This document shows positions 1 to 24,809 of a stretch of 61,715 bases of DNA, piece by piece; the first letter of the stretch is position 1, and every line of letters begins with the position of its first letter. Source of the stretch: a bacterium (GTDB lineage: Bacteria > Patescibacteriota > Patescibacteriia > UBA9934 > GWF2-40-263); contig JAGVFR010000013.1 in assembly GCA_020057555.1 (NCBI GenBank), forward strand, positions 1 through 61,715, read 5' to 3'. The position numbers and the translations under genes are program-made. The notes beneath the pieces are model-generated. The model worked only from the letters and a program-made list of their open reading frames with translations, was not told where the DNA came from and did not search any database.

Positions 1-1211
1 AAAGCGCTAAAATCCCCGACATTTTGGTTTGAGCCGACCCCGCAAGGCAAATTCATGTTGAATATCGCTTTTGGGCAATCAAAATACTTTGTGGATAATC
101 TTTCAGAGAATACTAAAGAGGGTTGCGTCAAAAATTGCGCCGAGGCGAATTGCCAGGCTACGCTTCGCTGGGATATTTGAACGACTTGCTAAAACACACG
201 ATATATAAAGACCCCGAAAGATTTCGCCTCGTTCGTAAAATTTTTGAACTTTACGCAACCGGAAATTATTCTCTGAAAGATGTGCGGAAGTTAATAACTT
301 CCGCTGGCTTGTTGAGCCGAAAGAAAAATATGCTTTCCGTTTCCAATATCCAAAGCATACTTTCCAATTCATTTTATTATGGAGTGTTTAAATATAACGG
401 CGAAATGTATGACGGAAAGCATGAGCCAATGATTCCAAAGAAACTTTTTGAAGCGTGCCAAAAAGTGATGGCGGATCGCTCCCGCCCGAAAAAGCCGAGC
501 CAAAAAGAATATCCATTTAGAAATATGCTCGTTTGCGGGGAGTGCGGTTGCGCCATAACTTCCGAAACGCAAAAAGGACACAACTATTATCGTTGCACCA
601 AAAAGCGGGATAAAAAATGTTCGCAAAAATATATCCGCGAGGAAGTTTTGGCCGAGCAAGTCGCAAACGAGCTTCAAAAAGTTTCTTTGTCTTCCGCTTG
701 GGCGGAGTGGATGCTCACCGAACTAAACAAGGAAGAAGCGGAAGCCGCCCAAAGCGGAGCCGTTTTCGCTCAAAATCTCAAAAACAAAATAAAAGAGCTT
801 GAAGGAAAGCTCGACATACTTTTAGACGCTCACTTGGACGGCACGATTTCACGCGAGGAATATACCGCTAAAAAAGAAAAAATCATCAACGAAAAAAGCG
901 AGCTTCCCGAAAAATCAAAGGATTTTGAGCGAAACTGCAATCATTGGCTCGAACCGGCCAGACAATTCATTTTAGCGGCTCAACAAGCCAAAATTATCGC
1001 TTTGCAAGAAAATCCCGTCGTGGGACGGGATTTTCTCAAAAGGATTGGCTCGAACCGCGTTTTGCTTTCGCAAAAGGTGGCGATTGAACCTAAAAAATCT
1101 TGGCAAATACTATACAATCTGTCTGCCGAGGCGCGAAGCGCCGAGGCAATAAACTCGCAACATACAATTTGGCTCGGGGGGTGGGATTCGAACCCACGAC
1201 CAATTGGTTAA
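1..1211 (+). pseudogene. large serine recombinase (resolvase-domain tail, recombinase domain, zinc ribbon); 5' end lies outside the window; apparent 1-nt frameshift near nt 115-120
   Basis: Frame 1 (nt 1-117) reads ...FMLNIAFGQSKYFVDNLSENTK. Frame 3 continues RGLRQKLRRGELPGYASLGY... The frames join only if one A is added in ACTAAAGAGGG. A zinc ribbon VCGECGCAITSETQKGHNYYRC and a coiled-coil tail follow. The last 14 codons run into tRNA-Asn. Confidence 0.7.
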
Positions 1212-13306: not shown

Positions 13307-14128
13307 ATGGCTGACAAAGGAAACTTGCTGAAAATCACATTCACTGACGAGGGTGAACTCGTAGTTGAATACCCCGGAGGAATTCGAGATCGAACCGGGA
13401 TATTCACCTCGCTCCAAGAAAAACGCACGGTTCTCGAGTTTGCCATGACAACCGCAGGACAAACTCTTCTCATGAGACAAAGGGGACGGGAAATTCACGA
13501 CCCGCTCACAAGTCTTTTGCGTCGTCAACCTGGCCGCGAGTTAATTCAACAGCAATTGGTACGAATTGCGGCAATGCCATTTACAGGGACGATTTCAATC
13601 ATCCTGATGGATCTTGATCACTTCGGAATACTCAACAAGCAATATGGTATGAGTGTTGGAGATGAAGTGCTCCGCTGGTTCGCACATATTCTCACCAGAA
13701 GAACAAGAAGTTCTGATGTGATTGTGCGATGGGGTGGCGAAGAGTTCCTGGTCTTTACCTCTGCGGGTCTGGCACCGGACGAACGTGGCAAGGCTCGCGA
13801 CAGAGACACTTCGACTAACGCCTTTGTCCAAACAGGTGCCACAGATAGAAGTCTGGGACCAGTTCTGAACAATGGAGAGATAGTCGCTGGTCGTTTCATG
13901 ACAAGTGCTGAGGCTGGACCATGTATGGTTGGTGGTTTAGCGATCAAACAACGAGTTACGATTGCTGTGGCAACACACATCATCACTTCAGCTGAAGACA
14001 GAGACACACTCGCCGAAGGTGTGTTCGAAGGTCTATTCGAACAAGCCGATGCTCTTCTTCGAAAAGCAAAGACTGATGGGCAACGTGGACGGATCTTCTC
14101 TTTCAACAAAGCCATGCAAATCAAGTAA
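13307..14128 (+). CDS. stand-alone GGDEF-domain protein (diguanylate-cyclase-like) with an internal insertion
   Basis: DPLTSLLRR, DLDHFGILNKQYGMSVGDEVL, RWGGEEF, ADALLRKAKTDGQRGRIF. A ~50-aa insert sits after the GGEEF strand. Start taken at the ATG after GGAGGACATC. Confidence 0.75.
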   Translation: MADKGNLLKITFTDEGELVVEYPGGIRDRTGIFTSLQEKRTVLEFAMTTAGQTLLMRQRGREIHDPLTSLLRRQPGRELIQQQLVRIAAMPFTGTISIILMDLDHFGILNKQYGMSVGDEVLRWFAHILTRRTRSSDVIVRWGGEEFLVFTSAGLAPDERGKARDRDTSTNAFVQTGATDRSLGPVLNNGEIVAGRFMTSAEAGPCMVGGLAIKQRVTIAVATHIITSAEDRDTLAEGVFEGLFEQADALLRKAKTDGQRGRIFSFNKAMQIK

Positions 14129-14144
14129 GATGTTTCTTCTTTCT

Positions 14145-14170
14145 GCGCCTTTAACAAAAGGCGCTTTTTT
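14145..14170 (+). terminator. intrinsic terminator
   Basis: GCGCCTTT-AACA-AAAGGCGC followed by TTTTTT. Confidence 0.75.
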
Positions 14171-14208
14171 GATTAATTTGTTCTAATTGTGTAAACTTTC
14201 GTGCGTTC

Positions 14209-14296
14209 GGAGAGATCGCATAGTGGTCGATTGCGCGCGCTTGGAAAGCGCGTATACCGAAAGGTATCGAGGGTTCGAATCCCTCTCTCTCCGCCA
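14209..14296 (+). tRNA. tRNA-Ser (anticodon GGA)
   Basis: 88-nt class II tRNA: acceptor GGAGAGA/TCTCTCC, anticodon loop TTGGAAA, long variable arm ATACC-GAAA-GGTAT, T-arm GAGGG-TTCGAAT-CCCTC, GCCA end. Confidence 0.9.
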
Positions 14297-14346
14297 GTTC
14301 AATGAAGCCAACTGCTTGGCTTTATTGAACTGGACACAGACAGAAA

Positions 14347-14462
14347 GGAGGGATTCGAACGCCGGAGCCATATGCCGTCAGTAGACGGCATGGCGAGGCG
14401 GTGGCCAGACCTCGGCGAGTTGACGAGCCGAGAGTCGAGGTCGAATCCCTCTCTCTCCGCCA
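14347..14462 (+). other. tRNA-like GC-rich element repeating the 3' end of tRNA-Ser (pseudo-tRNA, att-like duplication, or unknown ncRNA)
   Basis: Ends ...TCGAGG-TCGAATCCCTCTCTCTCCGCCA, nearly identical to the last ~29 nt of tRNA-Ser. The 5' GGAGGGA can pair with TCTCTCC. No standard D-arm or anticodon arm. Contains the perfect hairpin ATGCCGTC-AGTA-GACGGCAT. Confidence 0.35.
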
Positions 14463-14488
14463 ATTTTTACATTCAGCGAAATTGAAAT

Positions 14489-15019
14489 ATGAAAATCGGG
14501 GTTGGGTCAAAAAATAAAACTAAAGTTAATGCTGTTACGGAAGTGCTTAACGACTGTCCAATGTTTGCTGATGCAGAAATTGAAGGCGTTGATGTTCAAG
14601 TCGAGCAATTCGGTCATCCAAAAAGTCTTGATGAAACAGTCGCTGGAGCGATTGATCGTGCAAAACAAGCATACGTTAATCACGACTTTGGTTTTGGAAT
14701 TGAAGGCGGACTTATGAAAGTTCCTCAAACCAAATCCGGATATATGGAAGTCGCGGTTTGCGCGATTTTCGATGGCAAGCAAATTCACTTGGGTCTTTCA
14801 CAAGCGTGCGAATGGCCAAAAAAAGTTCTAGAAAAAATACTAGAAGGTCTTGATGGAAGTCAAGCAATGAAAGCAGTTGGTTTAACTCAACATGAAAAAT
14901 TGGGAGAACACGAAGGTCTTGTTGGAATTTTAACAAAAGGGCGTACGAACCGCACTGAATTCAACAAAGGCGCTGTTGTGATGGCTCTCATGCATTTGGA
15001 GAATCCGGAACATTATTAA
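14489..15019 (+). CDS. yjjX: inosine/xanthosine triphosphatase (YjjX/DUF84 family)
   Basis: MKIGVGSKNKTKVNAV..., GFGIEGGL, GLVGILTKGRTNR, AVVMAL resemble YjjX. Confidence 0.7.
   Translation: MKIGVGSKNKTKVNAVTEVLNDCPMFADAEIEGVDVQVEQFGHPKSLDETVAGAIDRAKQAYVNHDFGFGIEGGLMKVPQTKSGYMEVAVCAIFDGKQIHLGLSQACEWPKKVLEKILEGLDGSQAMKAVGLTQHEKLGEHEGLVGILTKGRTNRTEFNKGAVVMALMHLENPEHY

Positions 15020-22224: not shown

Positions 22225-24809
<2,585 letters not shown>

Follow-up and report, generated by a model that had tools for sequence, protein, structure and literature searches.

A structured element family behind tRNA genes of Patescibacteria that ends in a copy of the tRNA 3' part

The DNA that follows tRNA-Ser(GGA) in the patescibacterial contig JAGVFR010000013.1 (the 61,715 nucleotides analyzed here, referred to as the window) contains one intact copy of an element family that occurs downstream of tRNA genes throughout the Patescibacteria. 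This copy comprises a hairpin at 14297-14330 and a unit of 116 nt at 14347-14462. The family, whose elements are GC-rich and about 115-125 nt long, matches no RNA or mobile-element family described in Rfam 15 or in the full-text literature searched. On balance, we are inclined to regard it as a novel, small, protein-less structured element that spreads by duplication (i.e., a selfish one) and homes to tRNA genes.

The element at tRNA-Ser(GGA) and its fold

The tRNA-Ser(GGA) gene carrying the element is located at 14209-14296 of the + strand (ARAGORN; Rfam RF00005, 57 bits). It is one of three tRNAs found in the window by ARAGORN, and a scan of the whole window at the Rfam gathering thresholds also returns three tRNAs only. 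After a spacer of 50 nt (14297-14346) follows the 116-nt element (14347-14462, 65% GC), the total insert behind the tRNA being 166 nt. The element ends in an exact copy of the last 22 nt of the tRNA gene: the 22-mer TCGAATCCCTCTCTCTCCGCCA occurs twice in the window (14275-14296 and 14441-14462), with zero occurrences expected (100 shuffles). With one 1-nt gap allowed, the likeness amounts to 29 of 30 nt. Both the 50-nt spacing and a shared end of about 29 nt had been recorded in a first-pass annotation made from the sequence alone, and both are confirmed here.

All parts of the window copy are read on the + strand. The first copy of the direct repeat (14275-14296), within the tRNA gene, consists of the 3' half of the T-loop, the 3' strands of the T-stem and of the acceptor stem, G73, and CCA. 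Directly behind the tRNA lies the upstream hairpin (14297-14330), a 15-bp stem around GCCAAC-TGC-TTGGC, which is joined to the core by a linker (14331-14346) that is alike in the Ser-linked copies of G000:C6, G001, and G007, G000 being the genome of the window. The 5' strand of the closing helix P1 (14347-14358, GGAGGGATTCGA), supported by the MFE and centroid folds and by covariation, is complementary to tRNA positions ~56-66. Two arms are delineated by fold and covariation: the P2 arm (14360-14400) with a CGCC/GGCG base, a GGA/GA internal loop, GCCAT/ATGGC, an AT bulge, and GCCGTC-AGTA-GACGGC, and the P3 arm (14402-14442) with a conserved U.G followed by a GGCC/GGTC base, GAC/GTC, and CTCGGC-N10-GCCGAG. 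The second copy of the repeat (R, 14441-14462) supplies the 3' strand of P1 (14441-14452) and an unpaired tail (14453-14462) ending in GCCA. The window copy has the third-best score among the 106 collected family copies. Its genome (848,922 bp in 30 contigs) contains four copies, the fourth of which is divided between two contigs, C18 and C11, at the start of each.

Folding of the 116 nt gives -63.1 kcal/mol, with z = -5.73 relative to 200 shuffled sequences; the predicted fold is a three-way junction formed by the closing helix and two long arms. In P1 (10-12 bp), GGAGGGATTCGA pairs with TCGAATCCCTCT, while the last 10 nt (CTCTCCGCCA) are unpaired. Both hairpins that the first-pass annotation had named in the GC-rich interior are present, and its statement that the element has no D-arm or 7-nt anticodon loop holds as well. 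In an alignment of 106 copies (104 distinct) to a covariance model, a fitting that in itself favors the structure, standard pairs fill 95.3% of cells in the distinct copies versus 71.3% with shuffled partners (0/500 shuffles reach the observed value), and double changes involving both sides occur in 31 of the 32 pairs; when partners are slid by 1-3 columns, only 35-47% are paired. Pairing amounts to 92% in helix 1 (P1, with double changes in 6/6 pairs), 93.5-99% in helices 2-4 (P2, all with double changes), and 95-97% in helices 5-6 (P3). An independent MAFFT/RNAalifold analysis of 24 copies recovers these helices, and compensation is seen in 23 of 32 pairs. The core further contains three G.A-rich internal loops and several tandem G.A motifs, and the U.G at the base of the second arm (P3) is kept in 84/104 copies. 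Since both U.G and tandem G.A would be mismatches on the opposite strand, these sequence features point to the + strand as the one that folds.

An acceptor-like stem between the 5' GGAGGGA and the 3' TCTCTCC, proposed earlier, is not a property of the family. All seven pairs are possible only in the window copy (1/40 tRNA-linked copies ending in CCA), where they arise because the Ser tail is a CT repeat; the remaining 39 copies form 4-6 of the 7 pairs. Family covariation favors the P1 register GGAGGGATTCGA/TCGAATCCCTCT over the acceptor-like one. Lacking an acceptor helix, the element falls outside the tRNA-like RNAs as usually understood, and of the earlier proposal of a tRNA-like ncRNA only the structured, CCA-ending, RNA-like unit is retained. 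A likeness to 5S rRNA, which has the same size and topology, was also considered and dropped, there being no Rfam 5S match at E ≤ 10.

The neighbors of the element in the window are dnaG, rpoD, a GGDEF gene, and a gene for an NTPase. The GGDEF gene had been suspected of belonging to the same event as the element on account of its GC content; no such link is found, as its GC of 0.46-0.51 is within the range of the neighboring genes and it has its own terminator (14145-14164). No sigma-70-like promoter was found in 13900-14700.

Distribution and tRNA linkage of the family

A covariance model built from 24 copies was used for genome searches. In a sample of the order, it matches 60/151 genomes and 23/55 genera, with 1-13 copies per genome; in a sample of the phylum, matches are found in 9/151 genomes (7 of them outside the order), and one 0.6-Mb genome has as many as 10 copies. 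The exact core motifs GAACGCCGGAGC and GCGAGGCGGTG, separated by a gap of 18-48, define at least 121 loci in species-representative genomes, in a set that needs an intact core motif and in samples that are MAG-heavy and in which kin are not independent. Conservation of the core across the phylum amounts to 23 exact nucleotides. Among the core-motif matches listed, record titles refer to Saccharibacteria, Uhr-, Kaiser-, Magasanik-, Yanofsky-, and Woesebacteria, Paceibacterota, and others, almost all of them Patescibacteria. Many copies sit at contig ends.

Searches outside the cellular genomes and in reference collections gave no relatives. The exact core pattern has 0 matches in viral contigs, and blastn of the element against phage and plasmid collections gives no match. 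In Rfam 15, no family covers the core in the window (E ≤ 10), in agreement with the covariance-model check that the first-pass annotation had called for, or in six other copies (E ≤ 1). A description of the element was not found in the openly accessible full-text literature searched, nor in two preprints from 2026 that were checked for relevant terms.

Some element-bearing records are titled Gammaproteobacteria or Chromatiales (L085, L089, L104, L106, L123, and L146) and are probably mislabelled or mis-binned MAGs. In a subfamily (L088, L099, L119, and L126), an extra hairpin separates the core, which ends in ..GGGAGA, from the copied 3' strand of the T-stem.

A tRNA gene on the same strand is located at most 260 nt upstream in 84/104 copies, and the distance from tRNA to core is 20-80 nt in 74 of these 84. 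The linked tRNAs span 18 amino-acid types. Exact identity with the 3' end of the tRNA extends over at least 17 nt in 55 of the 84 linked copies, over 10-16 nt in 12, and over less than 10 nt in 17; of the 26 copies that were examined first, 20 agree with the tRNA at all 21 nt and another at 20 of 21. The copied repeat begins at C56 of the tRNA T-loop and is 15-89 nt long, reaching either the tRNA end (~21 nt) or, in the 42-89 nt cases, continuing through the tRNA terminator, often without a mismatch. When the tRNA gene does not encode CCA, the copy in the element also has no CCA and runs on into the gene's own trailer. Such ends imply that the repeat was taken from DNA or from a primary transcript and not from a mature tRNA.

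The 5' strand of P1 is complementary to tRNA positions ~56-65 and varies with the tRNA. Over six scored pairs, it achieves on average 5.30/6 with its own partner, 3.79/6 with partners on other tRNAs, and 4.17/6 with those of other copies in the same genome. Where the core is intact, copies have often lost the acceptor-strand part of the tail, or show it in degenerate form, while keeping the P1 part; the CCA tail is therefore probably a by-product and not the working end. A conserved hairpin precedes the core in nearly all copies, at 0-16 nt in copies other than that of the window, often with the stem GCAAGCCAA/TTGGCTTGC and the loop CUGC. A terminator is usually present between the tRNA and the element, and an intrinsic terminator follows most copies.

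Native tRNA terminators are often long hairpins, as in L030, L033, L039, L104, and others, 75 nt upstream of the element. In these hairpins, a downstream segment pairs with the acceptor strand and CCA of the tRNA itself around an A-tract/T-tract.

In 20/104 copies, there is no tRNA within 260 nt. At G000:C24:7375-7488 (-), a copy carries the 3' end of tRNA-Leu(GAG), the gene for which is on another contig (G000:C27:35539-35622). This copy adjoins a convergent tRNA-Val(TAC), and upstream of it only an 8-nt remnant of a tRNA end is found.

Gain, loss, and possible modes of spread

Close relatives differ in the presence and in the state of the element. The tRNA-Ser locus of the window, for which a comparison with relatives had been advised in the first-pass annotation, is occupied in G001 by a copy with 83% identity, differing in its closing helix by a compensatory change (C-G to T-A); in G002, the orthologue (G002:C9) is cut after 31 nt. 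Between two tRNA-Ser genes on G000:C6, the order is repeat-hairpin-core-repeat-hairpin with a perfect 64-nt repeat, and G001 and G002, from the same genus, have only repeat-hairpin between those two genes. A copy at G002:C6 is without the whole of P3, yet it lies between perfect 58-nt repeats. Perfect repeats of 55-89 nt are found in the family, as are tandem units of 130-190 nt. At a tRNA-Asp site, G018 is filled and G133, of the same genus, is empty. In this pair, the tRNA has kept its native terminator beside it (91% identity over query positions 21-168, in one pair with one syntenic flank), and the position of this terminator places the insert of G018 ~40 nt past the tRNA end.

The nearest core is found on a different tRNA in 34/36 informative copies and in the same genome in 18/36, a pattern that applies to all copies examined from G034, G018, and G104. 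Such clustering of cores by genome points to movement between the tRNA genes of one genome or, alternatively, to gene conversion, which could have acted on old copies without any recent spread.

A unit thus built consists of the hairpin, the anti-T-arm 5' strand, the core with its two arms, and the tRNA gene copied directly from C56, and its 5' strand pairs with the copied tRNA piece to close the three-way junction. On the reading as a selfish element, the unit would multiply by passing between the tRNA genes of a genome, and it is gained, lost, and decayed between close relatives. Its junction with the target would lie in the near-universal T-loop (TTCGA), a sequence common to all tRNA genes, and insertion would duplicate the target DNA from C56 onward. 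Transcription may occur by read-through from the tRNA or together with it, the + strand then folding as RNA. At a new site, the 5' strand would need to be adapted to the tRNA found there. The E. coli literature describes how quasi-palindromes are corrected in a templated manner as DNA is replicated. As quick re-matching of the 5' strand is hard to achieve by point mutation, either templated correction of this kind, in a single step, or slower selection for the closing helix could be proposed. Since the tRNA and the copied tail would offer two homology arms, the element may also spread between relatives by homologous recombination.

Twenty-three exact core nucleotides shared across a phylum are unusual for a purely selfish repeat and suggest a selected RNA function; conservation of the loops on this scale argues for a folded RNA that is recognized by something, which is why readings as a cellular RNA and as a guide or ribozyme have been kept. 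A cellular ncRNA is a less likely reading. It would act in the maturation, stability, or folding control of the neighboring tRNA, or titrate a factor that reads the T-arm or the 3' end; selection would keep the RNA beside tRNA genes, and gene conversion would even out the copies within a genome. Very strong covariation with near-invariant loop nucleotides throughout the phylum, gene-like intrinsic terminators behind most copies, the 21-nt copy that stays identical to the tRNA while the flanks diverge, and the compensatory C-G to T-A change by which the orthologues in G000 and G001 keep P1 are all consistent with such a role. It is harder to reconcile with the patchy occurrence (60/151 genomes, 23/55 genera), with 1-13 copies placed on different tRNAs in different genomes, with presence and absence varying within genera, and with truncated and internally deleted copies; moreover, the frequent loss of the acceptor-strand tail makes a role as a mimic of the tRNA 3' end unlikely, and a terminator usually separates the element from the tRNA. 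A new class of structured RNA that propagates itself, base-pairing by its 5' strand with the universally conserved T-arm of tRNA genes or primary transcripts and, with no protein encoded by the element, joining itself to the target's 3' part or copying it, is considered unlikely. Such an RNA would be a ribozyme- or guide-like tRNA-homing molecule, the target-matching helix of which is rewritten at each jump. Quite unlikely, too, is a guide-type or catalytic RNA in which the 5' strand serves as T-arm guide, the core as scaffold or ribozyme, and the tRNA piece is a captured or bound target, acting with a trans-encoded or host factor or alone. Its complementary 5' strand and identical 3' piece could pair with both strands of T-arm DNA, the three G.A-rich internal loops are typical of protein-binding or tertiary motifs, and P1 is re-matched on new tRNAs in what looks like a templated manner. 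Against this, P1 sequesters about half of the putative guide, no Rfam ribozyme or guide family matches, and no recombinase or nuclease adjoins the element at 20 loci: within ±3 kb, housekeeping genes are found, and the only mobility gene is one Xer-like integrase 1.7 kb away, in a neighbor scan of 96/133 predicted ORFs (≥90 aa) that left out 37 short or overlapping ones. Partner proteins were searched for in five copy-rich genomes (G000, G002, G034, G104, and G292). The TnpB zinc ribbon (PF07282), RtcB, and Nop are each found in 0/5, and reverse transcriptase (RVT_1) in 2/5; IS91 Y2 is found in 0/5, with a control that gave no match anywhere either. Phage_integrase occurs in 5/5, with only 1-2 Xer-like genes each, and Y1_Tnp, likewise in 5/5, is not associated with the element in the 151-genome sample of the order (41/60 carriers versus 65/91 non-carriers).

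An integrase scar and a pseudo-tRNA, both raised in the first-pass annotation, fare worse. The former would be an attR-type remnant of an integrase-borne island, inserted at the 3' end of the tRNA and subsequently stripped of its cargo. In its favor are the direct repeat, which takes up the tRNA 3' part from the T-loop onward and is what stands of that proposal, and the fact that large-serine-recombinase elements do integrate at tRNA 3' ends here (e.g., G037). We nonetheless consider it very improbable, because the core of ~95 nt covaries across the phylum, as is not expected of a scar, because the ORFs scanned near the 20 loci include no integrase, apart from the one Xer-like gene, and no cargo, and because the native terminator is undisplaced and stays with the tRNA (in the one filled/empty pair, G018/G133). 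In addition, 74/84 copies leave just 20-80 nt between tRNA and core, and the recombinase elements end before the terminator, hairpin, and core, the core being absent at 29/30 of their loci. Virtually no credence is given to a pseudo-tRNA or an intron-containing tRNA. The segment from the T-loop to CCA is indeed tRNA sequence, and GGAGGGA/TCTCTCC can pair in the window copy; however, ARAGORN and the Rfam tRNA model (E ≤ 10) are both silent at 14347-14462, ARAGORN making no intron-containing tRNA of this segment, and the D and anticodon arms are absent. Comparison within the family is equally adverse: the same core stands behind tRNAs of 18 amino-acid types, and acceptor-like pairing is complete (7/7) in 1/40 copies.

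The serine recombinase was rejected as the partner of the repeat; its gene is part of a different element, itself widely shared, that landed at a tRNA end. In G037, tRNA-Ser is separated from an element copy by a 3.4-kb insert that encodes a large serine recombinase; of 30 recombinase loci, one has the core within ±1.5 kb. The recombinase elements are homologous to one another up to a conserved end of their own, beyond which the native trailer begins; terminator, hairpin, and core lie outside the homologous stretch. A fragment of a large serine recombinase is also found in the window at 111-695 (+), cut by the contig start and with one in-frame TAA; it is 34% identical to the recombinase of G037 and runs toward the 3' end of the convergent tRNA-Asn (1170-1244, -). 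In numerous genomes of the order, related elements occupy tRNA 3' ends and terminate in ...CACCGCCA; at 1e-10, the recombinase is matched in 94/151 of the order genomes, with identities between genera of 94-97% in some cases. A second conserved trailer motif behind tRNA 3' ends reads roughly GGACAA..TTATCGG..CAA....GGGGCGACYGAT (L206 371-422 and 3902-3953; L022; L071; L213) and has the appearance of a left end, or attachment region, in serine-recombinase elements. In G037, the motif also follows the tRNA-tail copy of the element, and that copy can therefore be a landing site.

Other mobility-related genes were seen in the same genomes. ORFs with a Y1_Tnp (IS200/RAYT-type) domain are located at 24429-24740 (-) of the window and at G000:C13:93-416, and Y1_Tnp proteins of 175-300 aa, encoded by 106/151 genomes of the order, are unusually frequent for genomes so small. 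Two RVT_1 genes are present in the 0.85-Mb genome of the window, at G000:C17:43228-43872 (-) and G000:C29:682-1296 (+).

Patescibacteria have tiny genomes with very little spare DNA, yet many of these contain up to 13 copies of a 120-nt element. If the element is mobile, it moves without a transposase, integrase, or reverse transcriptase of its own and re-tunes a helix for each tRNA, which would constitute a new mode of spread; if it is a cellular RNA, it would represent an unstudied, phylum-wide class of tRNA-linked RNA. In practical terms, it breaks assemblies at tRNA genes, creates extra tRNA 3' ends that are landing sites for integrating elements, and provides an easy sequence marker for the phylum.

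Comparison with known systems

Integrative elements that target tRNA genes, such as genomic islands, phages with att sites there, and the tycheposons of Prochlorococcus (10.1101/2020.12.28.424599), resemble the family in the partial direct repeat of the tRNA from the T-loop and in the insertion downstream of an intact tRNA. Unlike integrative elements as generally described, the patescibacterial element is an insert of ~150 nt with no integrase or cargo and with a covarying three-way junction. It also differs from them in its undisplaced native terminator, in the many tRNA types that are occupied per genome, and in its 5' strand complementary to the repeat.

REP/REPIN-RAYT systems and bacterial MITEs (PMC3184786) are, like the element, short, GC-rich, hairpin-forming, multi-copy, intergenic, and non-coding, and they often break assemblies. 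Unlike REPINs and MITEs as generally described, the element has no fixed terminal inverted repeats: its closing stem is built from the target sequence and varies with the tRNA. Instead of a short target duplication, it exhibits one of 15-89 nt anchored at C56. Its location downstream of tRNA genes, the lack of an association with Y1, and the conservation of its core across the phylum further separate it from REPIN/RAYT systems.

Guide RNAs of mobile elements include the TnpB omega RNA, the IS110 bridge RNA, and the homing crRNAs of CAST aimed at tRNA genes. These RNAs and TIGR-Tas (PMC12045711) share with the element a structured scaffold joined to a locus-specific segment, with tRNA genes as a homing landmark. 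Unlike omega, bridge, and CAST RNAs as generally described, the element has no nuclease or recombinase beside the 20 loci (PF07282 and Nop 0/5 in the copy-rich genomes), its specific segment is half buried in a helix, and it has no Rfam match. It contains both a 5' strand complementary to the target and a 3' piece identical to it, and the two pair with each other.

An ordinary tmRNA is encoded elsewhere in the genome of the window. tRNA-like RNAs comprise the tRNA-like domain of tmRNA, viral tRNA-like structures, and the Y-RNA-like YrlA. Similarly to the element, they are larger structured RNAs that include a segment derived from the T-loop and terminate in NCCA. Unlike them, the element has no acceptor helix, places the 3' strand of the T-stem in a different helix, and occurs in multiple copies with many tRNA identities.
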